A stretch of DNA of 63,440 nucleotides, counting the filler, from Diploschistes diacapsis (taxonomy: Eukaryota): the NCBI GenBank assembly GCA_023645945.1. It is 18 parts of 18 records of this genome, joined end to end, with 100 filler letters (N's around TTAATTAATTAA, not from the genome) between each part and the next. Parts side by side here need not be neighbours in the genome. Positions count along the whole stretch, not along the records: positions 54,495 to 56,662 come from JALAIB010002336.1; 17 more parts are not named here. One strand, written 5' to 3'. The translations under genes were made by a program, and so were the position numbers. Below are positions 14,600-63,308 of this stretch, piece after piece; position 1 is the first letter of the stretch, and each line of letters starts with the position of its first letter. The notes under the pieces were generated by a model, which searched no databases, had not been told where the DNA came from, and saw only the letters and a program-made list of their open reading frames with translations.

Positions 14600-17500
14600 T
14601 CATTGCGTCCTGGTTGCTTTTCCAGCCTTGGAAAACTGTGGCACTTTGAACTGCTGCGGTCCTGTCGACGTCCAGCTCGAGTTATTCGCGCGCATCCCCA
14701 ACACCTTCCTTGGCATGTTTTGTGTTTCCTTGAGCTGAGCCATGGTGGTCTTGTGGAACGTGGCAGTAGAGAGAAACCGGCCATGGACCTTATTGCCAGG
14801 CACCAGACTTTCGCTCGACACAGCAGCCTGCTCCTCTGACAGGTCTCCGGTTTCATTGAAGTCTGCCAATGCCGTGCAACTGGGCGAAGAAGCACTCCAG
14901 ACGTGGCGCTTGCGAGAAACACCGCCTTCCGGATCCGTCCTGGAGCGTTTGAGACTGGGACCAGGTCGGACAGAGCGGTTTCTGAGCTCGCCCGGAATTG
15001 ATCCCATTCGTGGACGAGCTACGGTGGCCTCGCTTGCTGGCAGGCCGAAATCACCCAAGACACCTCTACCGTTTCCATTTCGTGTACGAGCGATCGTGTT
15101 CTCGTCGAAATTATCCAACGACGCACTCGGTCGACATGGTTGCACATCGTGAATGCCCCTCTTGGTAAGAACGCTGAAGTGCTCTAACCCGACCTCTGTT
15201 GGCAGCGTTGGTGAAGCCTTCCTTATGCTGCTGTCATAATAGATTTGGGGGGGTACAGATGCCTGCGAAGGGGCAGACCACAGGCTGGTTATTGTTGATT
15301 GTCCTTTTGCTTTCTTTGGGGCTCGCTGGGGTTTCGGCGGCACAAGTCTCTCGAGCGATGACCCGCTTGATAGCGATTCGACCGCTCGGATGTCTTCCCT
15401 CTCCTGCTGAATCTTCAGTTGCGAAGCTGCAGACATGAAACCGCCTACCGGGGTGGACAGATTCTTGTTTGTGTCCACCTGGCGCATGATGTCTCCGCTG
15501 CGCTGAGAAAAGCTTGATTGCCCAATCTCTATGGTCTTTGACGCGTAAGGGACAGTCGATAGCTTTCGTCGCTTATTGTCTGACACCAAAGTCATACCAA
15601 CAGCTTCATTCACATGCGGTCGCAGGACTTCTTGATTTGCACTGCCATCAAGCGGCCACTTGAACTCGTCATCATCGAGATACTGCGTCCTCTTTTCGGC
15701 TTCGATTAAATCATCGTAAGACGGCGGGTCACGTCTTAAGATACTGCATATGTCGAATACTCGGTGCGCATGGATCGATGGTCCTTGATTAAGGAGACAT
15801 GAGCGGACCTCCTTGGTGTCAAGAAACGGCGAAAGTGTGGTTTCATCTCCCCGGGAACTTCTTGTGGGACAACTCAAGTATAGCAGGGCCTGCGCCCTCG
15901 TCATGGCTACGTACAACAGTCTGCGTTCCTCGTCGTGGTCTTCTGCCCTCGAATGGGGTATGGATCCATGGTACACAGACGGAATAAACACAACAGGCCA
16001 TTCCAAACCCTTGGCCGCATGCATGGTTGACAGTGTTATGCTTGGCCGAGGACGGCCCTCCGAGTCTTGTTCTTTCTCGGTCTGGATTTCTGTTGCTAGC
16101 GCAACATTCGAGAGAAACCGTGATAGAGCTTCCTCCGCGGGAACACCGACCTCACGCTGCTCGACATCATCAAGGGTTGGCAACGCATCCATGTCCTCTT
16201 CAAGCGCTTCGGGTCGTGGATCAATATCAGAAGCTTGCACAAGGAGTTCCTCAACATTGGCCCACCTGACATTTTCAGTGTCGTCTGGGTACGTCTTCTC
16301 CAGATACCTCTTGAACTCAAGCCGCTTTATCAGTAGCTCTAGCAGTTCGTAAGGCGACGTGGCCGTCTTTTCTCCATTCAAATTTTTCTTTACAGTTTCT
16401 ATAATGTTGAAGAATGATGCAAGACCGCGTTCAGCTTGCTTGGATATCTTGGTCCTGCACCTTCCTTCACCTCGCACAATATCCTTAATCAGGTCCCATA
16501 ATGGTCTTCCTACATGCGTGGCCTCCTCGAGCAACTCTTTCGTTGTGTCTTTACCCACTCCACGAGGGGGAATGTTGACAATACGGGCAATTGCATCGCT
16601 GTTGCTCGGATGAGCGATGGTTCTTAAGTAGTCAAGCAATATCTTGATTTCCACGCGGTCGAAGAACCTGACGCCGCCAACCATCCGGTATGGCATAGCC
16701 GCATGGCCCATTGCTAGCTCGAGCTGCCGAGATTGGGATGCCGAGCGTATTAGAATCGCAAAGTCTGAAAAATCAAGTACTTTTTCTCCAGTTAGCGCCA
16801 TGCAGCGCTTCATCTCCGCGACAACCCACTGGGCTTCTGCTTCAACCGAGAACAGCATCCTTAGAACAGGGGGCGTCCCTCCGCAATGCGTTGCCTGCAA
16901 GGACTTTTGCGGTCGAGAAGAATCTTGTTCGATAACTTCCTGAGCGGCTTGAAGAATAGCGCCAGACGACCTGTAATTGTCTTCTAGATGAATAACGTGG
17001 ATATCGGGATAGAGATTCCTCATGCGCTCGAGGTTCTTTATCTCCGCCGAGCGCCACCCGTAAATGCTTTGATCTGGATCGCCAACCGTTGTTATTCTTT
17101 TGTTTCGCTGAGCAAACAGACGCATCAGCATAAACTGCACGTTGTTCGTGTCTTGAAACTCGTCGATGAGTACAGCGTCGACGTTCGAAACGCACTCGGG
17201 ATAGGCCGTGAGCAGTTGCACACAAAACGTCAACAAGTCGTCGTAGTCCAAAAGATTGGAAGCCTCAAGGTGGCCCTGGTAGGCTTCATAAACGATTTGA
17301 AATTCTTGCTGATCGACACTCTTTTTCTTGTTCTTTTGTTGAATATCCCAGTAACTTTCGTTCCGAGCCTTGCACTTCGAGATTCTGCTCCTCGCAACGT
17401 TGGCGTCTATGGTAAGCTTGTGACGCTTCATTATGCGGAGAATGATGGCCTTGCTATCGGAAGCATCGACAATGGTGAATCCTTTCCGTAGCCCTATCAA

Positions 17501-17824
17501 CTGTCCGTAGCTGTACAAGTACCGCAGACAGACTGAATGGAATGTCCCAAGTATCAGCTTCGCCTCCATCCCACCGCCAATCTGCTTCGCTATCCTAGCC
17601 TTCATCTCCCTCGCGCTCTTGATGGTAAAGGTCAGACAGACAATGTTCCATGGCCGATACCCTTCGTGCTGCAAGAGCCACGACACTCGGGACGTCAGCG
17701 TCTTCGTCTTGCCGGAGCCGGGCGGAGCCAAAATCTGGACGACCAGAGCGGGCGAGGTGACGGCGCTTTGTTGTGCGGGATTGAGGCCCTCCAGGACGCG
17801 CGACGAGTCGGGAGCGGAGGACAT
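14600..17824 (-). CDS. SRS2: UvrD/PcrA-family SF1 DNA helicase, Srs2 orthologue, 1074 aa
   Basis: LNPAQ Q-motif, APPGSGKT Walker A, TFT, GTFHS, IDEFQDTN, VGDPDQSIYGWRSA, LEDNYRS, STMHAAKGLEW, EERRLLYVAMTRA; long disordered C-terminus. Confidence 0.92.
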   Translation of the reverse strand: MSSAPDSSRVLEGLNPAQQSAVTSPALVVQILAPPGSGKTKTLTSRVSWLLQHEGYRPWNIVCLTFTIKSAREMKARIAKQIGGGMEAKLILGTFHSVCLRYLYSYGQLIGLRKGFTIVDASDSKAIILRIMKRHKLTIDANVARSRISKCKARNESYWDIQQKNKKKSVDQQEFQIVYEAYQGHLEASNLLDYDDLLTFCVQLLTAYPECVSNVDAVLIDEFQDTNNVQFMLMRLFAQRNKRITTVGDPDQSIYGWRSAEIKNLERMRNLYPDIHVIHLEDNYRSSGAILQAAQEVIEQDSSRPQKSLQATHCGGTPPVLRMLFSVEAEAQWVVAEMKRCMALTGEKVLDFSDFAILIRSASQSRQLELAMGHAAMPYRMVGGVRFFDRVEIKILLDYLRTIAHPSNSDAIARIVNIPPRGVGKDTTKELLEEATHVGRPLWDLIKDIVRGEGRCRTKISKQAERGLASFFNIIETVKKNLNGEKTATSPYELLELLIKRLEFKRYLEKTYPDDTENVRWANVEELLVQASDIDPRPEALEEDMDALPTLDDVEQREVGVPAEEALSRFLSNVALATEIQTEKEQDSEGRPRPSITLSTMHAAKGLEWPVVFIPSVYHGSIPHSRAEDHDEERRLLYVAMTRAQALLYLSCPTRSSRGDETTLSPFLDTKEVRSCLLNQGPSIHAHRVFDICSILRRDPPSYDDLIEAEKRTQYLDDDEFKWPLDGSANQEVLRPHVNEAVGMTLVSDNKRRKLSTVPYASKTIEIGQSSFSQRSGDIMRQVDTNKNLSTPVGGFMSAASQLKIQQEREDIRAVESLSSGSSLERLVPPKPQRAPKKAKGQSTITSLWSAPSQASVPPQIYYDSSIRKASPTLPTEVGLEHFSVLTKRGIHDVQPCRPSASLDNFDENTIARTRNGNGRGVLGDFGLPASEATVARPRMGSIPGELRNRSVRPGPSLKRSRTDPEGGVSRKRHVWSASSPSCTALADFNETGDLSEEQAAVSSESLVPGNKVHGRFLSTATFHKTTMAQLKETQNMPRKVLGMRANNSSWTSTGPQQFKVPQFSKAGKATRTQ

Positions 17825-48211: not shown

Positions 48212-49831
48212 ATGGCTTTTGGACTGCCAACAAAGCGTATCTGCGCTTCTTGTGCGGCCTCGTTAAGAAAACAGTCTCGAGTGTCCGCGCAACGACATAG
48301 GTGGGCTTCGGCCATCCATGTACCTACTACGGGTCCCTCAGAGAAGGGAAAGATTGTAAATGAAGCAGAGGTACAATCAATGGCCCCAGAAGTCAAAAAA
48401 AAAATCACTATACCTGTTCGTCGAAGCTAATGCTGCGTAGAGAGATGCTTCCCTACCATGTCCCGACCCGGCACCAGACTCCCAGACAGCTGCCTTCGTG
48501 GAGCAATATGCGCCCTACTTGGTGGCAACGTACTCCAGGCCCCCACCAGTAATGCAGAAGGGCGAAGGCTGCTACCTCTGGGACATCGAGAACCGGCGCT
48601 ACCTCGACTTTACGGGCGGCATTGCCGTCAACTCCCTCGGCCATTGCGACCCTGGGTTCACGAAACTGATATCGCACCAGGTGAGTTCCCAACCCCCCTA
48701 CATTCCAAGTATATGTTCCTTTCTCAACCGGTCCACTAAAACCCCACCGTCCAGGCAAACACCCTCGTCCACTGTTCCAACCTGTACCACAACCCCTGGA
48801 CCGGCCCCCTCTCCAAGCTCCTCGTCCAAAAGACCCTCGCATCCGGCGGCATGTACAACGCCGCGCGAGTCTTCACCTGCAACTCCGGCACCGAAGCCAA
48901 CGAAGCCGCCCTCAAATTCGCCCGCAAAGTCGGCTCCATGCGCTCCTCGTCCTCATCCTCGTCCTCGTCCTCTCCCAAACCCAACCCAAAACACGAGCTC
49001 CTCTCCTTCACCTCCTCCTTCCACGGGCGCACCATGGGCTCCCTCTCCGCGACGCCGAACCCCAAGTACCAAGCGCCCTTCGCGCCTCTAATCCCGGGCT
49101 TCCGCCACGCGCCCTTCAACTCGACCACGGACCTGGACTCGCTGATCACGGCGTCGACGTGCGGCGTCATCGTGGAGCCGGTGCAAGGCGAAGGCGGCAT
49201 CCACGCGGCGTCGGTGGGGTTCCTGCAGGCGCTGCGGGCGCGCTGCAGCGCCGTGGGCGCGGTGCTGATCTACGACGAGATCCAGTGCGGGCTGGGGCGG
49301 ACGGGCGCGCTGTGGGCGCACTCGCGGCTGCCGCGCGACGCGCACCCGGACATGGTCACGAGCGCCAAGGCGCTGGGCAACGGCTTCCCCGTCGGCGCCG
49401 TGGTCGTCAGCGACGCCGTCGCGCGCTGCGTCGCCGTCGGCGACCACGGCACCACCTTCGGCGGCAGCCCGCTCGCCAGCCGCCTCGCGCACTACTGCGT
49501 CGGCCGCCTCGCCGATCCCCGCCTGCACGCCCACGTCCGGCGCATGGGCGCGCTGTTCGCCGCCCGCTTCGACCGCTTGCGCGCCAGGTTTCCGCGCCTG
49601 GTCGCCGAGACCAGGGGCATCGGCTTGTTGCTCGGTCTGCAGCTGACCCGCGATCCGGCCGCGCTGGTGGCCGCGGCCAGGGAGAGGGGGCTGCTGCTCA
49701 TCACGGCCGGGACGAACACGTTGCGCTTTGCGCCGCCGCTGGTCGTGAGCGAGCGGGAGGTGGAGGAGGGCATGGCCATACTGGAGAGCGCGATGGAGGA
49801 GGTGGTGGGGAGGGAGAGCGAGGGGGCATGA
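48212..49831 (+). CDS. ARG8: Mitochondrial acetylornithine aminotransferase (class III PLP); exons 48212-48370, 48441-48680, 48755-49831
   Basis: YLDFTGGIAVNSLGH, CNSGTEANEAALKFARK, SFHGRTMGSLS, IVEPVQGEGG, YDEIQCGLGRTG, SAKALGNG, HGTTFGG; both GT-AG introns keep frame. Confidence 0.95.
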
Positions 49832-50664: not shown

Positions 50665-51279
50665 ATGCCCGTTACAGTTGCGCAGATTATCGGGCCCCAC
50701 GAGTACAAACCAGAGCTGGTGGAGCATATATCCTTCCGAACGGTACAACCTTCCATTAACATACTCGAGCCCAACCCAGCATGGCCGCAACGATATGAAG
50801 AAGTCAAACAGCGGATTCAAAAAGCTCTTGGGGCCTTGATTTTGGACATCGTTCATGCCGGCTCTACCAGTGTTCCTAGCCTACCAGCTAAAGACATTAT
50901 TGATGTTGATCTGACACTGAAAGACGTCATGGATGAAGCATCCTATGTGAAGCCTCTGGAAGAGGCAGGATTTCGATTCCTCCTACGCGAGCCGCAATGG
51001 CACCAGCACCGATTATTTGTGGAGGATTGGCCCAAAGCCTATCACGTCAATGTTCACGTGTGGGGTCCCGACTCGTCCGAAGTTATCAGACATCGTATCT
51101 TCCGTGACTGGTTACTCAAAACGCCAGCGGATCGGGAACTATATGCCAAAGTGAAACGCGAAGCGGCTAAACAGACGGCCATGGCTGGAGGATCAATGGA
51201 TGATTATAATCAACAAAAAGAGAACACAATCCGTGAGATCTTAGGAAGAGCATTCCTTGACTTAGGTTACGTTAAATGA
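50665..51279 (+). CDS. GrpB/UPF0157 family nucleotidyltransferase-fold protein, 204 aa, intronless
   Basis: WP.RYEE...I..ALG, HAGSTSVPSLPAKDIIDVD, NVHVW, RHRIFRDWL...ADRELYAKVKR, YNQQKE. Confidence 0.9.
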   Translation: MPVTVAQIIGPHEYKPELVEHISFRTVQPSINILEPNPAWPQRYEEVKQRIQKALGALILDIVHAGSTSVPSLPAKDIIDVDLTLKDVMDEASYVKPLEEAGFRFLLREPQWHQHRLFVEDWPKAYHVNVHVWGPDSSEVIRHRIFRDWLLKTPADRELYAKVKREAAKQTAMAGGSMDDYNQQKENTIREILGRAFLDLGYVK

Positions 51280-51840: not shown

Positions 51841-52000
51841 AATATCATGTGTCTGGCGACACATGATGTCGCCCTCCAGGTTCCTAAGCGAAGCAGTAAG
51901 TATTAAGTAAAAAATCTAGGCTTAAAAAACTGGGTAGGTTTATTAGGGGTTGCACCCCCAAACCCTGCTTTTTTGTTTTTGGGGATTGCATCCTCACACC
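51841..52000 (-). mobile_element. Second copy of the hairpin-terminated (Helentron-like) repeat end
   Basis: Reverse complement of 300-422; ATATCATGTGTC-TGGC-GACACATGATGT hairpin. Confidence 0.55.
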
Positions 52001-52224
52001 CCTACTAATAGAATTTAGCTGAATATTTAGAAATCTGAATAACTATAATAATTGTTTAATTTTTAAGATAAATTAAAAATAAATACTTTTATAATTTTGT
52101 CGACATCTTATAACTAACGTGTTTNNNNNNNNNNNNNNNNNNNNNNNNNNNNNNNNNNNNNNNNNNNNTTAATTAATTAANNNNNNNNNNNNNNNNNNNN
52201 NNNNNNNNNNNNNNNNNNNNNNNN

Positions 52225-53613
52225 TATTATTCATTAATTATTTATTAATTACGAGTCAATTATTTAATAAATCTTCTTTATTTACGAAAATAATAATAAG
52301 ATAAACGATATTTTATTTAAGAAACGGGTTGCTCCCATTTTAATAAAAGAAAACTAACAGCAATAATTCGACCTTATACGTATATACGTTAAAAAAAAAG
52401 CTAAACTACGTCCTTAATAATCGGCCACTATCGCCTACTACAGTCACGTTAAATGACTTTATATCATCTACCCCTACCGGTTCAGGTTTAATTTTGAACA
52501 AGACACCTAAACCATAAAAGAAAGATTAATCTAAAACAAATTACCAGATTATAATCTATACGAAAGAAATCGATTAAGAACGTCTTCATAATTTATTTAC
52601 TACGAAAGCTAAATAGGATTCTTTATAAACAAAATACCAAACGATTACTAACCTAAACGTCGCCAACTAAACCTTAAATTCGCCAATTATAAACTTAAGG
52701 AAAACACGACCCATTCAGAAGGCATAAATATATTTAATAAAACTTTCAAAAAAGCTGTCGTATAAACGAACCGAATACGCCCTAAAGATTCTCTTTTAAT
52801 AATTACTTACAGCATTATCGTCTAATTACGGAATCATTATCGACGCCATTAATACGTAAATCGATAATGTTTTATCCGTCAATATCGACTTCGATAAATA
52901 ATTCAATATACTCACCGACGAGCAAAATAAGCTCAGAAAAGAAATTATAACATATTCTTTACGTTATAATAAATCATAATGTTCTAGGGGCTTCCCCTCT
53001 TAAAGACGATCCGACGAAAAACGACGCCACCGTTCTAGCCCAATAAAAGGATATCTATTTTATAATAACGATAATTATCGTACGATACGATTCAAGCTCG
53101 CCAAAAAGTTTAAAAAATGATTATCGCAGTAAAAGACAAGAAGCGGAAGAAAAGAAAAGAATCCCGAGATATCCGCGACAAGAAAGATAAGAACAAGCGC
53201 GCCTATAATGTAAAAGGTTCAGACGATAAAGGTTTAAAAAGTTCGAAATCTAAACCTAAACCTAAACCCTAACCAAAATATAATAATAAAGTTAATAATA
53301 TATCTAAAAACGTTATTATTAAAAGAAAAATACTTCTATCGAATAGATCGGTGATACCGGCGTTTTATTATATATAACTAACCAGCTACATTTACTTAGA
53401 CATTTGATTCTTATTCGAAGACCACGAATTAAAATCGGGGAAGGAATGCTCTATTTAGATTATACTATCAAGATTAGGTTGAAGCAAGGCAATAACGGCT
53501 CATATTTAAGATATATAATGTATGTTTTTAGATTGAAAGCCAATCTTATATCGGGATAAAAGTTAAATAAGATAGGATTACGGAGGAATTTTGATTAAAA
53601 GAGTTTGTATTTA
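52225..53613 (+). mobile_element. Ty1/copia gag-protease region (RIP)
   Basis: E*IGDTGVLLYITN at about 53341 matches the WIxDTGAxxHMT protease motif. Confidence 0.7.
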
Positions 53614-53615
53614 TA

Positions 53616-54394
53616 ACGTATTTGACGGTCAGCTCGGCCACCCCCAAAGCTCGGCCACCTTAAAGCACTACCGCCAACATTCTACCGTTTTTAGATATAA
53701 TTTATTCGTCGCAATCAGAATCTAATCGATTTAAATCGAAACTATTTTCTTCTTCTTCTTCTTCTTCATCCTCCTCGATTTCAGAAACGCGACGACGTTT
53801 TTTACGCGTTATAGATCGTTTCGAAATTATTCGAGTCGATTTAACCCGAGCTGTTATTTTAAGAACTTCGTCTGTGCTAAACATAGAAGAATCTTTTAAT
53901 TTAATTCGTTTATTTAATTTACGTTTTTGACGATTATTAAAAAGCGTTTTTGGCTCTCGATTTTCTTTACGGAACGTTATAAATTCAGTATAGGTCGATT
54001 TAAACATACGGATTAATCGAGTCGAATAACGTCTAATTGAGTTAATTAATTTTAGAACGGCGCGTAACGTTCGATTAAATTTTTTATTAATCTTTTATAG
54101 TTCGGTCGTGTCTGGCAAAGAGTTATAAAGTATAAATAAATTTAAATCGAATCGATTCGTGATTAATAAAAGACTAAAAGATAAAAATAATAAAATCCGA
54201 TACGTCGAAACGAGTTTATTAAACACGATTATGAATTTGTTGAGCAGACAGGAAGAAGGCATGGCTGGGAGTTCGACTGAGTTCCAGAAGGAGGTTCAGT
54301 TCAGCTGAACTTCGAGGTTTAGTTCGGTTAAACTTCCTAGAATTTCAACTAGATCGATTAAAAAATAATATAGGTAGTAGGGCTTAACGTATCC
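53616..54394 (-). mobile_element. Pogo/Fot1 3' end (53616-54237) interrupted by LTR family B (54238-54394)
   Basis: TA-ACGT terminus with CTCGGCCACC repeats; transposase C-terminal ORF 53702-54007; TGTTGAGCAG LTR start. Confidence 0.72.
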
Positions 54395-55540
54395 NNNNNN
54401 NNNNNNNNNNNNNNNNNNNNNNNNNNNNNNNNNNNNNNTTAATTAATTAANNNNNNNNNNNNNNNNNNNNNNNNNNNNNNNNNNNNNNNNNNNNAGCAAG
54501 CTCGAAGGAGCTCATATAAGGAGATGAGCCACGGTGCTAAGGACCGGTGACTGCTGGGATACCAGTCTCGGTGGTTTCGGGGTTGTTCCGATGCAGAGCG
54601 GCCGACAGGATTCGCAGATGAAGGGAAATTGGTTAGCGTTTACTTGAAACTGCGACTGTTGATCTCCCGAGTCGTATAGGGGAATACATAGACGAAGAGA
54701 TAGGCTATCGGCTTTGAGACTGAGCGAGCCGACGAGCTGCATCCCATCATTCAAGGCTTCACTAGAATACAACAAGAATATATCAAAGGGGATATGTAGT
54801 ACTGAAAAGACGGTATGGAATAATGTATCGAGATCTGCCAGGTCCCAACGGCAGGTCCGCGAAGTAGACATGGCCATAGCTTTTGAAGAGAAAGAGAGTA
54901 TTTTGTCTTGTGTTGGCTGATCACCTAATCTCGTCTGTTGTTTAACTTGTTACCTAGTTCGTTTCACATTATTGACGGAGGTCTGACGAATCCCGCCGTC
55001 TTGGCAGCTATGCCTTTCTTGCTCACGTTTTATGTTTTATGCACGGGGCATAATAATTATTCACCACCATGTTAATTGAAAAATCCACCAGCCCTATAAG
55101 GCCCTTGACCCTCATCATCCCATCATCCGTAAGGTCTGCGCGTCTGCGAGAACGGTGCAAAGTATCGTGCCTTTTGGACAGTTGTATTATGGCTTCGTAG
55201 TTGAGTATAGGAAATACTTGATAAAGCTGACCAGCCCCCAATCATCCAAACTATTTTTCTGTGTCCTGGACCACACATTGGAGGAGTACTTTACTTGATC
55301 TTCACAGTGTTACTGAGCAAGATTGAATATCGCCTCGCGGCGTTAGCGGGGTGAAGTCCGAGATCTGTTAACCCCACTTACCGATGACCTGGCCCATTAT
55401 CGACTTTCCCATGAAAGAACAGAAGTCAGACCTCAGGCTTAGCCACGTATTTTTCCTCGAAATCACGAACTCAACACTGCTCTAGACTGCTTGTACAACA
55501 GATTCACATAAGTGGTTGAGCCTTCGGTGCATTACCAAAG

Positions 55541-56320
55541 ATGACAGACTCGACGCTTCCCACTGCTAACAATCCGTGGATGGGTAAGTAAACAATGGTG
55601 CCCACTCGCAAATCCACAAGTAGGACTGATTTCTATTTTCACACAGCATGGTCACAGTAGTAAGTGACAACTGCCGCCACAGCTACCGGACGTCAAGCTG
55701 TACGCTGACAAGCCTACCATGTCAGCTTCAAATCCACCGGCAAGATCGACCTTTTCGCTCTCTGCAGTAGCGACCGCAAAACCGTCGACCACCCGGACAG
55801 CCCAGCATCGTCCCTAATATGGATCGCAGATCCCGCCATCAAAGTATGCATCCATCCAGCTCGCCAGGGCGAAGCAATACTGACCGATTTGCGTCTACAG
55901 CCACAAGCCAAACAAATTCGGGCTATACTAGATTCAATGACAGATACAAGCAGTGACAAAAAGGTGCTGAGCGAAGGCTTCCACGTTGGAAACGACCGCT
56001 ACATATGCGTCAAGACCGAGTCGGACAGGCTGATCGGCCGAAAAGTGAGCAAGGAAATTTCCCCAAGCACAATAGCAATGGACGGGACACGTTTTTGCTG
56101 ACGCTGAGAAAAAAAACAGGGTAAGGAAGGTATAATCTGCTTCAGAAGCGAGGGCGGCCTGGCCCAGACAAAGACACATCCCCAAAGCTCCGGCTTCCTG
56201 GCCATTGCACATCATCCCGAGCTGCCGGAAGGCTCCGTAGGCGCGGCGAACTGGGTCGAAGACGCAGCCAAGGTCTTGCAGAGTAACCTCGATCAGGCGG
56301 AAACGGGACGTAGGCAATGA
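55541..56320 (+). CDS. Divergent profilin-like protein, 172 aa; exons 55541-55583, 55647-55659, 55726-55843, 55901-56044, 56120-56320
   Basis: Four canonical introns splice to MTDSTLPTANNPWMAWSQYFKSTGKIDLFAL...IWIADPAIKPQAKQIRAIL...EGFHVGNDRYICVKTESDRLIGRKGKEGIICFR...LAIAHHPE....GAANWVEDAAKVL; matches the profilin core GxxVxGxRY....DxRxxxGxKGKEG. Confidence 0.82.
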
Positions 56321-56762
56321 GTCGGTGCATCGCAATAAAACACAGGTTCCCAGTCGGCTGGTTGGTGCATAGATGAAGTTGTGTAGCCCGCTAGTCCGTG
56401 TGCGGCATGTCGAGCAAGAGAGTTTTGGAACTTCTTTGTATTTTATTCCGCAGTTCACAACCTCCTCCGAGCCTTTAAGCTATCGAACCAAAGACCCTTG
56501 AAGCTCGACACTTCATAGTTTTAACACCAGCATCTTGCGTGTCGAACAAGCCTCTGAACAAAGCAAATGCTCGAATGCCTTAATAACTCCACAAAGATGC
56601 CAAAAAGGTAAATACACCACACCCCTCAACTAGACCGGCAAATCCGCCCCACTCCTCCCCTGNNNNNNNNNNNNNNNNNNNNNNNNNNNNNNNNNNNNNN
56701 NNNNNNTTAATTAATTAANNNNNNNNNNNNNNNNNNNNNNNNNNNNNNNNNNNNNNNNNNNN

Positions 56763-58193
56763 AATTAAACGAAAAGCCGTTAATAAATAATATCCGTATC
56801 TAAAAATTAAGATATTATAACTACGTGAATCCTAAGTTATTATTTAAACGATAAGATAAATTAATAAATAAAATAAAATTAAATATAATAATCGGATATA
56901 CTAATATCGATAAACAATATAAAATCTAAACACCCGATATTTAAAAGATTATTAAAACCAATTCAATCAAATTTAAAAAAAATAATACGCTTATTCTTCA
57001 AAAACTGAAATTATCTAAAAGCTATAAAAAAGACGATAACGTAATACCCATCCGAAAGCTACCGGGACGTCCAGTTAACGATCTAATACCTAATATTAAA
57101 GATATTAACGACGGGTTAATTATTCACGTCAACGACGGGTCAATTATTCACGCTAAAAACGTATCAATTACGTACGCCAAAGACGTATCAACGACAAAAG
57201 CAAAAATTTAACTAAATTATACTAAACCTACATCATTTGTTCCTACCGAGGATCACAGCATCCTAAAGGCCCCTATTTCCGTTTTATATGATAAACCCGA
57301 GCAAGATAATAATAACCGACGATCAATAAAGAAGTTCTTACGGATTGAAATTTTAAGAAAAAAAACTGAACCCGACCCTAAATCTAAATTTATTAAACCG
57401 AATATATTAAAACCTATTATATTAATAACGAACGTTATATACGTCATTAATAACCCGATTACGCATACAGTATTCGTTAACGCCACGTTAACAACCTCTA
57501 ACATATAAGATTCTCAAATAATAAACGATATAAACGACGTTTCAATAACTATAATTATTTAAAGCATCAAGAAATTTTATAACACGAATTCCGTTATTAA
57601 TAAACGATAACAAGATATCGAACACTTTTCATTAATTAAAATATTAAAGAATTATATAACGCTTATAACCAATAAATAAAAGATAACGAACGACGTCGGT
57701 TTAAAATCGACGCGTATTAACATTTTAAGGAACTATAAAAAGGCCGTAAATGATCCAATCTTCGGATAAAAGTAGGAAGCAGCAGTAAAAAGAAAAATCG
57801 ATTTTTTATTATTGAACCAGACCTGGACTAAACTACCTAAACCATCTAAACCCACCAATATTATAAACTTAAGATAGGTTTTCGATATCAAATACAATCT
57901 CAATAATAACATTAAAAGATTTAAAGCTAGATTAATCGTAAGAAGTTTCTTATAAAGACAAGATATCGATTTCGACGAGATATTTATTTTTATTATTCGA
58001 GCCGATTCGTTACGAATTCTATTAACGGTTATAATAACTAAAGATCTAGAATGTCATCAAATAGACGTTAATAATACGTTTATCGAAACATTATTAACGT
58101 ATTAAATCTACATGACCGTATTAAATAGATATAGCGTTTTAAAGGGCACCGTGCTTAAGATTAATAAAAGCTTATATAAGCTAAAATAGGCGG
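56763..58193 (+). mobile_element. Ty1/copia integrase end and reverse transcriptase (RIP)
   Basis: *VFDIK, FKARLIVRSF, DIDFDEIF, CHQIDVNNTF and KSLYKLK*A (= KSLYGLKQA). Confidence 0.88.
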
Positions 58194-58929
58194 TGTAAGG
58201 CCAAGCAAGGAGCATGCCAATAGTCGGACAAGCGGCACTCAGGGTCTTGGCTTGCGGGTACTTGAAGGGGGATTTTGCCCTTCTTACTCTCTTCTTTTCT
58301 TTAGTAATTAATTCTAGCATGAATCTGCCCTACGTGCAGCCATCTTGCCACATTATCGAATTCCACCCTTTACAGTTCTAATTATTCTACCTTTCTTAAA
58401 AACGACGATCCGACAAGATAACACGTTCTTCACAACGTAAACGCAGGATAAACCCACATAACCAAATTAAAATAGAAGAAAGTGAAGGAAGAGAAAGAAA
58501 TAAACGATCTAAAATTACTTCACTTAATAAAAAAGATTCAGATTATATCGAGCAACAAGAACGAGACTCGTAGTCTAAAGACAAAACATCAGTAAATAAG
58601 TCGTTAGAATAAGAAGATGGTTTCGAATCTATATTAAAAAATATATTAGAAATAATAAAAAACATACTACTAAAAATAAGATAAGATATGAAGCTTAAAA
58701 AAAACCAAATAACAAAAGCGAGAAAAGATACCCTCGTCGAGAAAACAAAAAGAATTACTGTTAAAGCAGCATTAACAGCCGAGATGATGCACAAGCGATA
58801 AGTAAATTAAGATCATCTAGATGCCATAGACCGCTACCGCGACATTAAATTAAATAAATTATTACCTTTTTATAAAAAAACTGTTCAGAAACATAACCGT
58901 GGAATAACAAATATAGAAAGTATATTTAT
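58194..58929 (+). mobile_element. Nested LTR (58194-58374) and following degenerate gag
   Basis: TGTAAGG..CCTTTACA bounded GC-richer block that interrupts the copia RT. Confidence 0.65.
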
Positions 58930-59029
58930 NNNNNNNNNNNNNNNNNNNNNNNNNNNNNNNNNNNNNNNNNNNNTTAATTAATTAANNNNNNNNNNNNNNN
59001 NNNNNNNNNNNNNNNNNNNNNNNNNNNNN

Positions 59030-59898
59030 ATTACCTCCTACAATAGTAATACATTACTATTGTACTCAGCATTATTTCCCTAGTCATTACTTGCCTATTT
59101 AGTCACCCCACTTCCACTTTTCAACAGGTATATTATTACGGGGAATATAAACTAAAAATTGACATAATTAATTTACATAGGGTCATTAAGATTATTAAAG
59201 GAATATTTTACGCTATAAATAAAACAGAAAATTCGATAATCTTAAACACACTAGACTTCAAAACGAAGAAACTGTTATTAAATTACGAAGAAATAGTTTA
59301 GCGCTTTAAATTTAATCGAAAAAAACATCAAATATCTTCTCCTAAAGAGTTCGCGAAAAGTATAAAAAATTATACTATAATATACGCTCTAATGATTAAC
59401 AGAACGGATAATAAAGATACCGTAAACAAATCGCCACCGACTCGTATAAAAAATATTAACTTAATTAAAATTCTTAAGGTCATTATAAAATACGAAGATA
59501 TATTTAACGAACGACTAATCAACGAATTACCAGCGAACGGTTCTTAAAATCATGTAATTAAGATAAACGCGGAATTACTTTACGGCCCATTATATAATCT
59601 TTCAGCGATCGAATTGCGAGAACTCCGCGAATATCTAAATGATGTACTATTATATAACTAGATTCAACCTTCGATTAACCTAATAGGGGCCTCTATTTTA
59701 TTCGTGCCTAAAAAGAATAATTTTTTGCGATTATATATGAACTATCGGGGTTTAAACAAAATCACAAAAAAAAATAGATACCCATTACCCCTCATCAGCG
59801 AAACGCTCGATCGTCTAAGTGAAACTAAGATTTATTCAAAATTAAACCTAAAGAACGCGTATTATAGGATTCGGATTAAACGAAAAAATAAATAAAAA
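59030..59898 (+). mobile_element. Ty3/gypsy protease-RT fragment (RIP)
   Basis: GPLYNLS..ELRELREYL, GASILFVPKK, LRLYMNYRGLNKITKKNRYPLPLISETLDRL, YSKLNLKNAYYRIRI. Confidence 0.92.
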
Positions 59899-60468
59899 TA
59901 GGCTGGCCGTCACTGACACTGACACGGCCGTGTCAGTGACACGGACACTGATAATGTCAGTATCCGTGTTTTAGATTTTTTAGCTGCGGTGTCCGTGTCC
60001 GTGGATTCACGGAAATGCAGTATCCGTATCAGTATCAGTATTTTAAAATTTTTAATTATAATGTCCGTGTCCGTACTTTTATTATAATATAATGTCCGTG
60101 TTAGTATCCGTGTCGAAAATTTTTTTATTACGGTGTCCGTGTCCGTGCATTCACCGAAATACTTTAAATTATTTTTTTAATTTTAATAATTCTACAATTA
60201 TCACGCCTATTTCTTACGCTTTTATTTTTTTAAAAAAATTTCACCGCGGTGTTTCGGTGGATTCACGGAAATGCAGTATCCGTGTCAATATTAATATTTT
60301 AAAAATTTTAATTACAGTGTCCGTGTCCGTGCTTTCACTGCAGTGTAATGTCCGTGTCAATGTTCGTGTTTTAAAATTTTAGCTGTAGTGTCCGTGTCAA
60401 TATCCGTATTTTGAAAATTTTTGCTGCAGTGTCCGTGTCAGTAACAGTGGCACGAAACGGCCAGCCTA
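59899..60468 (+). mobile_element. Full-length 570-bp MITE family H element with 12-bp TIRs TAGGCTGGCCGT
   Basis: TAGGCTGGCCGT ... ACGGCCAGCCTA; interior made of GTGTCC/GTGTCA hexamers; no ORF. Confidence 0.85.
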
Positions 60469-61187
60469 CTCTTAATACTACGTCTTATTGATTATTTCAG
60501 AAGATTTTTTACCTAATTCAATGCCGTCGTATTTATTAAACGGGATTCTTTAGCCTTTATATATGTCCGTTATCATCTTAAAACGCTGAAGCATCTTCTC
60601 GATATATATCTTTTAATCTAAGGTCAGTTCAGTTAAACTTATTGAACCTAAACCTGAACCTAAACTACGCTATTGCTAAACTCTCATACCTAAAAGCTTT
60701 TTTAATCTCCCCCAAATCCTTAACCTTATAGCGTTCAGCTAGTACTTTTTTAAACCAACATACATCATACAGATCCGGCGCTGCTATAATAATATCGCTC
60801 ACGTAAAGGCCATCTAATAGCTTTTCTTAACCTCGGAAAATAAAAACGCATAAGTTAACATTAAATCGAACGAATTTTAAATTCAAGATTCCTTAAGATA
60901 CTAACACGCGTCGGTTTTAAATCAACGTCGTTCGCTATTTCCTATTCATTAACCATAAACGTTATATAACTTCTTAATACTTTAATTAATAAGAATTACT
61001 CGATATCTCGCTATCGTTTATTAATAACGATATTCGTGTTATATAGCTTTCTAATACCCTAAATATTTATAATTATTGAAACGTCGTTTATATTATTTAT
61101 TACTTAAGAATCCTATATATTAAACGTTATTAATATAACGTTAATAAATATTATATACGTAATTAGATTATTAATAACGTGTTTAAT
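60469..61187 (-). mobile_element. Ty1/copia RT fragment (RIP)
   Basis: - strand LTLD*KIYIEKMLQRF and LYVSDII (= LYVDD). Confidence 0.7.
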
Positions 61188-61693
61188 NNNNNNNNNNNNN
61201 NNNNNNNNNNNNNNNNNNNNNNNNNNNNNNNTTAATTAATTAANNNNNNNNNNNNNNNNNNNNNNNNNNNNNNNNNNNNNNNNNNNNGTGTTGGGGTGAG
61301 TCAGGGCACGCTTGATACGCTCAACATGCTGGTTGTTGCTCGGGGGAGTATGACTGCGAGGGAGAGCTTAGAGATGTTGAAGTGAGGTCGGGACGGAGGC
61401 AAGAGCGATGAAGTGCTTCTCGTTGAACCAGAAACGGTCCTGGGCAACGACCTGTGGTTTAATGCTTCTTCGATAAAGTCCTGGTCTACGGCAGCATGCC
61501 AGCTCTTGTCACTTCCTTTTTTCCCTCTATCGCCGACCAATCTTCCTCCATAGCCTACCAGTCCTCCTCCATGGCAGACCAAACTTCCATCGATGGCCGA
61601 ATAGACTACCTTTGTTCTCCAACCCCTCGTTCGCCCTGGACATCTATCTGCACACTTGCCCTCAGACGACCCAGGCCCACTGACATGCCGCAG

Positions 61694-63308
61694 ACTAACA
61701 CAAGACACCACCCCCATCCAACGCGGCATCATACGCCATGTCGTTGTCCTCCTCGACCTCTCAGAGTCGATGCTCGACAAAGACCTACGTCCTACCCGCC
61801 ACCTCCTGACTATCCACTACATGACAGACTTCGTACGAGAGTACTTTGAGCAGAATCCCATCTCGCAGCTAGGGATTCTGGGCATGAGGGATGGGCTGGC
61901 CGTCAGAGTGAGCGACATGAGCGGGAACCCAGAGGAGCATGTTGCTGCGCTGCAGGCGCTGAGGGAGCAGGAGCCAAAGGGACACCCGAGTTTGCAAAAT
62001 GGTTTAGAGATGGCTAGGGGGGCGCTGTTGTACGTACAGCTCTTTCACTCTTCTCCCCGTCCTTGCCCTTCGCTGTTATGCAGATTCTCTCCATCTTTCC
62101 TTCCACCCTTCAAACCACCCATCAATCCCTTCTTACATTACCAAAGCTGACCACCAGCAAGCCACATCCCTTCCCATAGCACTCGCGAGGTCCTCGTCCT
62201 CCTCGGTAGCACCTACACCGTCGACCCGGGCGACATCCACACCACCATCTCCGCCCTCATAACCGCTCACATTACATGCACCGTCATTGGCCTCAGCGCC
62301 GAAGTAGCCATCTGCCGCACCCTCGTCACTCGCACCAACCCCTCTCTCGCCCCAGCACAGGCCTACAGCGTCGCGCTCGACGAACAGCACTACAGGGAAC
62401 TGCTCATGGGCGCTACCACCCCGCCGCCCATAGCCCCAAGCCAAGCGCAGCAAGAACACGCCGACGCAGCCGGCGGCACGCTGCTGATGATGGGCTTCCC
62501 CAGCCTGACCCTCGCCCAGCCTTCCTCGTCCACCGCCGTCGCCGCCACCGGCAGCAACGATAACGATATCAACCCTACCCCGGAAGCGATACCCCAAGGC
62601 CCAAGCCTCTGCGCCTGCCACTCCACCCCCACGCTCGAGGGCTACCTGTGTCCCCGGTGTGGCGCCAAAGTCTGCTCGCTTCCGACGGATTGCCCGGTCT
62701 GCGGCCTGAAGCTTGTTCTCAGCACGCATCTTGCGCGCTCGTACCACCATCTTTTTCCGCTGCGGAACTGGCGCGAGGTGCCGTGGGCCGAGGTGCGGGG
62801 CGTCGAAGCAGGGGAGAGGCAGGTGAGGTGTTTTGGGTGCCAGGGAGCGTTCCCGGCCGTCCCGGAGGCGCTGGAAGATGGTGGAGATGGGGTGCAGAGG
62901 AGGAAGAGCGCGGGGACGGCGGGCGCGGAGGCAAGGCTCCTCCGGAGGGCGCAGAAGGGGGGAAGGAATGGTGCTGTCGGCGGTGGGGAGGACGGGAGCA
63001 GGGCGGTGAAAGTTGTCGACGTGGTTAAGGACGTGGGCGGCGGCGGGGGGAGTGCGAACGGGATTGCCGAGTCGGGGAGGTATGCGTGCACGAGCTGCGG
63101 GACGCATTTCTGCATCGACTGCGATGTCTTTTGTCATGCCGAGGTGCACAATTGCCCTGGGTGTTTGGGAAGGGCGGCGAACGGCGGGCGAGGGGAAGGG
63201 AACGAAGCAAGGCAGACGGAGGCGGAGGCGGGGGCGCAGACGGATATGCCCGTGGAAGTGGGCAGAGAGATACTGGAGCTGCTGGCGGGGTCCTTGGGCC
63301 CCGGTTAA
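61694..63308 (+). CDS. SSL1: TFIIH subunit Ssl1/p44, 5' exon missing; exons 61694-62029 and 62162-63308
   Basis: DTTPIQRGIIRH, LDLSESM..KDLRPTR, EYFEQNPISQLG, PSLQNGLEMA, CACH, GYLCPRC..KVCSLP..CP.C...L..STHLARSYHHLFPL, CFGC, FCIDCDVFCH..VHNCPGC. Confidence 0.93.

Follow-up and report, generated by a model that had tools for sequence, protein, structure and literature searches.

Profilin is the protein that supplies actin monomers to growing filaments, and in fission yeast its binding to poly-proline is needed for viability. To our knowledge, fungal studies treat profilin as a single gene, and the orthologues of the canonical Pezizomycotina protein are yeast Pfy1, fission-yeast Cdc3 and FgPfn of Fusarium graminearum. 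We take the poly-L-proline groove, situated between the two terminal helices, to be formed by Trp3, Tyr6, Trp31, Tyr105, Tyr124 and Tyr130, and the central sheet together with the start of the C-terminal helix to be the actin face of solved profilin-actin complexes. Canonical Pezizomycotina profilins (Pfam PF00235) have 130-132 residues, and within our alignment A3, ten proteins drawn from sources named among others as lichen-forming genera, Aureobasidium and Polychaeton, identity is 72-80%. FgPfn is 131 residues long according to the relevant passage of PMC11095717.

Among the more distant profilins, vertebrate profilin-4, which is not known to bind actin or poly-proline, and the poxvirus protein A42R combine the profilin fold with a degraded poly-proline site and can be taken as models for a remodelled extra profilin, although their lineages are unrelated to the fungal one described here and no specific sequence kinship with it was shown. 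PMC9527652 describes the profilin fold of A42R as probably no longer binding proline-rich ligands. Apicomplexan profilins (PDB 2jkf, 170 aa, and 3nec, 164 aa) resemble our candidate in being long and in carrying extra loop or hairpin segments on the standard fold, but their inserts stand elsewhere in the protein, and they belong to a different lineage. For fungi, full-text searches of the literature listed no account either of a divergent profilin or of a second one.

We analysed a window of 63,440 nucleotides joined from contigs of the Diploschistes diacapsis assembly GCA_023645945.1, and found at 55541-56320 (+) a candidate gene predicted to encode a profilin-family protein that has diverged strongly. 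It shares with the canonical protein the core signature, the sites and phases of four introns, the D-x-S-x-x-KKV-x-SEGF stretch typical of the lineage, and the motifs GKEG and AAN-VE, but it has 172 residues instead of 130-132, shows 35% identity with the canonical consensus, and its partial ORF reaches about 25 bits in Pfam where canonical profilins reach 161-172. More precisely, the ORF at 55709-56098, which runs from stop to stop through exon 3, intron 3 (itself in frame) and exon 4, obtains 25.3 bits (E 1.7e-05) with Pfam Profilin, a partial sequence placed marginally above the cutoff of 25 bits, and exon 4 alone gives 21.5 bits. With an HMM of canonical profilins, built from 30 full-length Pezizomycotina sequences of 130-132 aa taken from 108 collected proteins, the spliced protein scores 56.4 bits; the alignment covers positions 28-99 of the HMM, and the envelope takes in residues 13-162 of the protein. 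Profilins (three, E 0.003-0.011) are also the only matches of the candidate ORF in a PDB sequence search, in which exon 5 alone matched nothing. A language-model Atlas placed the ORF closest to three profilin clusters with scores of 0.87-0.88, the third of them being named 'Profilin family member 4', which we treat as a lead only.

The gene comprises five exons and four introns, with a coding sequence of 519 nt (172 codons and a stop). Exon 1 (55541-55583, 43 nt) encodes a 10-residue N-terminal extension and the tryptophan corresponding to canonical Trp3, and ends in phase 1 within an alanine codon. It is followed by intron 1 (55584-55646, 63 nt, GTAAGT..CAG, with a CTGAT branch motif) and by exon 2, a microexon of 13 nt (55647-55659) which ends in phase 2 and is the homologue of a canonical 16-nt microexon minus one codon. 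Intron 2 (55660-55725, 66 nt, GTAAGT..CAG, CTGAC branch motif) leads into exon 3 (55726-55843, 118 nt), which spans the last part of helix 1 together with the first strands and contains an 11-residue insert at 55787-55819. Intron 3 (55844-55900, 57 nt, GTATGC..CAG, phase 0) keeps the reading frame and contains no stop, and exon 4 (55901-56044, 144 nt), the best-conserved part of the profilin core, is separated by intron 4 (56045-56119, 75 nt, GTGAGC..CAG, phase 0, at the Lys/Gly junction of GRK|GKEG) from exon 5 (56120-56320, 201 nt with the stop), which encodes the last two strands and the C-terminal helix. In this last exon a 13-residue insert lengthens a hairpin (56159-56197), HH stands for HY and KVL for DYL, and a tail of eight residues is added (56285-56317). 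All four introns run from GT to AG with CTGAC or CTGAT branch motifs before the acceptors, in phases 1, 2, 0 and 0.

The putative start ATG at 55541 is the first one in frame downstream of a stop at 55517-55519. A second in-frame ATG (55578-55580) is the last full codon of exon 1, and a start from it would bring Trp to position 3 and Tyr to position 6 at canonical spacing; the base at -3 is A for the first ATG and T for the second. If intron 3 were retained, it would insert 19 residues without breaking the frame, and in a database relative of the candidate, P0001, an in-frame intron is read through at this very site. The collection of proteins that we searched holds no protein of 71-228 aa from the candidate locus, while three other proteins of the window are present in it, two of them under NCBI nr, and the gene seems to have been missed by the deposited annotation.

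The intron layout is informative for the origin of the gene. The canonical profilin gene of a metagenome locus, L014, starts with a 13-nt exon ending in phase 1 within the codon of Ala5, continues with a 16-nt microexon and a phase-2 intron in the codon of Ser10, and has a phase-0 intron after GFT. Introns 1-3 of the candidate occupy the same sites in the same phases as all three L014 introns, with the microexon of 13 nt against 16. The fourth (phase 0, K|G) falls at the site where canonical database fragments pass from YGKK into V..., that is, where a GT donor has been read through; this is seen in P0002, P0005, P0006, P0009, P0020, P0038, P0075, P0082 and P0101, as an in-frame insertion artefact in P0053, and also in two divergent proteins, P0001 and P0007. 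L014 itself (1321-2021) has introns 1-3 and is without the K|G intron that other canonical genes have, which points to a lineage-specific loss. The first-pass annotation had proposed five exons, including a 13-nt microexon, joined into a 172-aa ORF, with introns where canonical fungal profilins have them, and both parts stand: the frame is open through four GT..AG introns with branch motifs, three of three L014 sites and phases agree, and the fourth agrees with the read-through artefacts. Since all four intron sites are kept, the microexon included, the candidate gene descends, as its exon structure argues, from a canonical Pezizomycotina profilin gene by ordinary descent at the DNA level.

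The same introns set the alignment of the N-terminus. Anchored by them, P-W-M-A-W of the candidate corresponds to canonical S-W-Q-A-Y, so that Trp3 is kept and Tyr6 has become Trp. MAFFT paired the second methionine of the candidate with the canonical start instead, and we rejected this pairing, which would need both introns to have moved.

The microexon gives trouble in ordinary profilins too. In a number of deposited models a mis-spliced or read-through microexon or intron brings the protein to 144-184 aa (P0042, P0044, P0050, P0054, P0061, P0073, P0018, P0048, P0053 and P0074); they come mostly from assemblies of lichen fungi, with two Aureobasidium strains among them. They are an annotation artefact that could be taken for 'long profilins'. 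Our candidate illustrates in its turn how genes with microexons escape annotation, several deposited canonical models of lichen fungi mis-splicing the same microexon.

When aligned by MAFFT with the consensus of 30 canonical profilins, the candidate agrees with it at 44 of 126 positions (35%) and keeps 16 of the 41 columns that are invariant in the canonical set. The segments it has for itself are the 10-residue N-extension, the 11-residue insert of the first hairpin and the 13-residue insert of the last one; one extra residue precedes AAN, the C-terminal tail adds eight, and one codon of the microexon is lost, which balances the length exactly (130 + 10 - 1 + 11 + 13 + 1 + 8 = 172). At the invariant columns, His replaces Tyr105 and Lys-Val replaces Asp123-Tyr124, and no Tyr stands at 130, while Trp31, G-K-E-G, His104, Pro106 and A-A-N-x-V-E are retained. 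The claims made from the first reading, namely a profilin identity resting on the core peptide quoted there, a PWMAW start after an extension, two inserts, HY changed to HH, DYL to KVL and an added tail, hold well: the Pfam score of 25.3 bits is marginal, the canonical HMM gives 56.4, and every listed change is found in the alignment, with inserts of 11 and 13 residues.

The two binding surfaces can be considered in turn. Of the residues of the poly-L-proline groove, Trp3 and Trp31 are kept, Tyr6 is Trp, Tyr105 is His, Tyr124 is Val and Tyr130 is absent, so that the canonical aromatic groove, as predicted from the alignment, is not retained in the candidate. On the other side, the lysine before T-E-S, R-K-G-K-E-G and AAN-VE are retained in the alignment. 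We suggest the following mechanism. The fold as a whole would be preserved, the basic residues around GRK|GKEG in the central sheet and AAN-VE where the C-terminal helix begins are kept, and monomeric actin is probably still bound, since canonical motifs are kept in the regions that form the actin face. The poly-proline groove, made by the two terminal helices, would be remodelled by the 10-residue N-extension, the 8-residue C-tail and the replacement or absence of three tyrosines; with both terminal helices extended and Tyr105, Tyr124 and Tyr130 lost, coupling to the FH1 tracts of formins is probably weakened or retargeted. The two inserts would lengthen hairpin loops and could create a new surface. 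The product might then act as a binder or buffer of actin monomers, or as a specialised regulator, and not as a housekeeping formin cofactor.

A gene so far from the consensus may be asked whether it is a gene at all. A decaying duplicate, that is, a non-functional relic whose frame has stayed open by luck, would agree with the strong divergence (the low counts of consensus matches and of invariant columns) and with the absence of the gene from annotation. We simulated neutral, substitution-only evolution of the coding sequence of L014. No stop had arisen in 72 of 3000 runs taken to 35% identity, nor in 85 of 3000 taken to 40%, in a simulation that ignores the in-frame indels and the eight intact splice sites of the candidate; as 2.4% of neutral runs is not negligible, a point in favour of the relic, the open frame taken alone is no more than suggestive. 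Against decay speak the consensus donors, acceptors and branch motifs at all four introns (eight splice sites and four branch motifs intact, even beside a 13-nt exon), length changes that are each in frame, and a GC3 of the coding sequence (0.63) above the GC of the introns (0.49). Conservation is strongest in the structural core, exon 4, the changes gathering in loops and termini, and relatives with the same derived motifs exist. We regard decay as quite improbable, and these indirect signs favour a candidate gene maintained under selection.

The relatives deserve separate consideration. When 1.84 billion representative proteins were scored with the candidate ORF, eight matched at E<=0.001, the best at 6.9e-06; P0002, P0005, P0006 and P0008 are read-through fragments of ordinary profilins, and the other four (P0001, P0003, P0004 and P0007) are aberrant in the manner of the candidate. 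These four have in common with it the motifs ILD, RY(I/V)C and RL(I/Y/F/V)G, and two of the four also C(F/Y)(K/R), and their C-terminal helices are altered where this region is present. Identity to the candidate ORF is 37% for P0001, 29% for P0003, and 36% for both P0004 and P0007, the divergent sequences of the alignment ranging overall over 29-43%; their Pfam Profilin scores are 58.4, 43.9, 24.0 and 33.7 bits respectively, and two canonical proteins score 171.9 and 161.4. P0003 is NCBI MCJ1332650.1, a protein of 182 aa annotated as profilin, and the other three are unnamed. Like the candidate, MCJ1332650.1 has a W-x-A-W start and an insert in the first hairpin, but the inserts differ in length and sequence, and the three unnamed relatives are fragments in which an exon is read through. 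A likeness of the 'HP..SP' type between the first inserts of the candidate and P0003 was set aside as too short and of low complexity.

In a further search, for close protein homologues, the single ORF of the candidate matched none of four candidate proteins, and P0003 used as a query matched itself only. A profile search gave 104 further matches among 2088 candidates, and its named matches of 130-132 aa come mostly from lichen-forming fungi and Aureobasidium. Metagenome contigs searched with alignment A2 yielded 364 pattern matches and no relative, and the metagenome profilin loci came only from the canonical alignment A3.

The profilin fold holds a central antiparallel sheet between N- and C-terminal helices, and P0003 is the relative for which a model was obtained. 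The AlphaFold model of it, made with alignment A4 (28 rows), has a mean pLDDT of 64.4; its core blocks reach 69-79, and residues 27-75 form a disordered insert. Its elements begin with a helix, a strand and a short helix, and after the disordered insert come two helices, five strands and a long helix. In a Foldseek comparison of this model with the PDB, every one of ranks 1-43 is a profilin, led by 1acf (E 7.2e-05, TM 0.52), and the fold-level matches of the model with the apicomplexan structures 2jkf and 3nec have probabilities of 0.96 and 0.89.

For the phylogeny we used 81 distinct rows and 130 columns, comprising the candidate, the four aberrant relatives, 31 database profilins and 45 ORFs of metagenome loci; we excluded fragments shorter than 120 or longer than 135 aa, ORFs of loci that scored below 60 bits, and duplicates. 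In the maximum-likelihood tree the candidate and P0001, P0003, P0004 and P0007 form one clade (support 99/98, stem 0.59), which is nested among Pezizomycotina profilins beside an Arthroderma protein and the metagenome locus L005 (98/71). Forcing the candidate together with 14 rows of lichen fungi costs 34.85 lnL (p-AU 0.029). Placed singly in quick trees, the candidate settles weakly (SH-aLRT 46/65/83) among six rows of Squamulea, Gallowayella, Xanthocarpia, Calogaya and Xanthoria, all Teloschistaceae, P0003 goes with Arthroderma and L005 (99), and P0001 goes with another long branch (89). The clade may in part be a product of long-branch attraction, and a common divergent profilin lineage is favoured by the tree without being secure.

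It would be logical to ask, then, whether the divergent sequences represent an additional copy or the only one. If the candidate were the one profilin that a rapidly evolving group of fungi has, the five aberrant sequences would mark one clade of organisms whose housekeeping profilin had moved far from the canonical form, and a single clade nested in canonical Pezizomycotina profilins is what taxon-specific acceleration would give; P0003 is labelled plainly 'profilin' in its NCBI genome, and the ORFs from 80 profilin loci, compared with the whole 63-kb window, match it only at 55709-56278, so that there is no second, canonical profilin within it. Among the 104 profile matches there is likewise no second protein with a source name beginning like that of P0003, which is not evidence in itself because this search is word-based and clustered at 90%. 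What makes a sole copy hard to accept is the constraint on profilin elsewhere: the canonical proteins of A3 keep their 72-80% identity, and canonical Pfam scores are 161-172 bits, while the divergent set is at 29-43% to the candidate ORF and at 24-58 bits, its members being distant from each other as well, and the C-terminal tyrosines are replaced in both the candidate and P0007. If poly-proline binding is as essential here as it is in fission yeast, its loss from an only copy would be unexpected and so degraded a groove hardly tolerable. A sole copy is for these reasons a doubtful reading, and were it nevertheless true, it would show that a core protein of the cytoskeleton tolerates more change than expected.

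The contrast between a constrained canonical set and a divergent one fits a release from constraint after duplication. We consider it an even call that the candidate is an intact and selected extra profilin, evolving fast, with a canonical copy elsewhere in the genome, the step to an extra copy being the one that we infer. Such a remodelled additional copy would be a ready separation-of-function variant, with the actin face kept and the poly-proline face lost, and could show how far the role of profilin in hyphal growth needs formin coupling. We may go further and suppose, rather speculatively and against our own expectation, that some Pezizomycotina possess a rare and old second profilin lineage, fast-evolving, which has kept the actin face, has lost the groove for formin coupling, and stays hidden as gene predictors miss its microexon. 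If this is true, it would provide a naturally occurring 'uncoupled' profilin with a role in buffering or redirecting actin monomers.

The surroundings of the gene have to be read with care, since the window consists of unlinked contigs, and genes that seem adjacent to the candidate are for this reason uninformative. A first contig of 24,690 bp is followed by about 17 contigs of ~2.2 kb each, separated by spacers composed of N44, TTAATTAATTAA and N44 (34 N runs in 17 pairs, within 24691-61287 of the window). The contig with the profilin gene occupies 54495-56662 (2168 bp), flanked by the spacers at 54395-54494 and 56663-56762, with no other contig sequence between them. The idea of an island of normal GC between RIP-like AT-rich blocks, beside ArgD, GrpB and SSL1, was consequently dropped, as those stretches lie on other contigs, and suggestions of synteny and of RIP leakage were dropped with it, the supposed neighbours being other contigs as well. 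ORFs of canonical profilin loci, taken with flanks of up to 1.5 kb, have nothing in common with the window except profilin itself. On the contig, an antisense ORF of 181 codons over exons 4-5 (55934-56479, -) is without a Pfam family (best E 0.14) and is taken as spurious, and neither a further antisense ORF (55714-55998, 94 aa) nor any of three ORFs lying upstream matched a Pfam family at a meaningful E-value.

This composition also raises the matter of provenance. The contig could belong to another fungus in the sample, as a co-assembled or binned contaminant, and any second profilin in the assembly would then be no paralogue. The chain of ~2.2-kb contigs after one of 24.7 kb is compatible with this, as is the GC3 of coding stretches on separate contigs: 0.93 for an aminotransferase (48851-49831), 0.77 for a TFIIH-Ssl1-like protein (62406-63308), 0.57 for a UvrD-like helicase (14603-17824) and 0.48 for GrpB (50665-51279), with 0.63 for the profilin itself, and many of the closest named profilins are from lichen metagenome-assembled genomes. 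Given this range of 0.48-0.93, the assembly may be a mixture of organisms, or its genome may be very heterogeneous. Nothing links contig 54495-56662 to another organism, however, and heterogeneity of GC is known within single fungal genomes too, so we judge a foreign origin to be unlikely; it would concern where the gene comes from, leaving its identity unaffected.

The AT-rich stretches mentioned above (52000-54500 and 56720-61400), which cross spacers and several contigs, have ~31% GC and RIP-like indices, with TpA/ApT of 1.09-1.10 and (CpA+TpG)/(ApC+GpT) of 0.57-0.67, and with their degenerate AT-rich ORFs they are probably relics of repeats.
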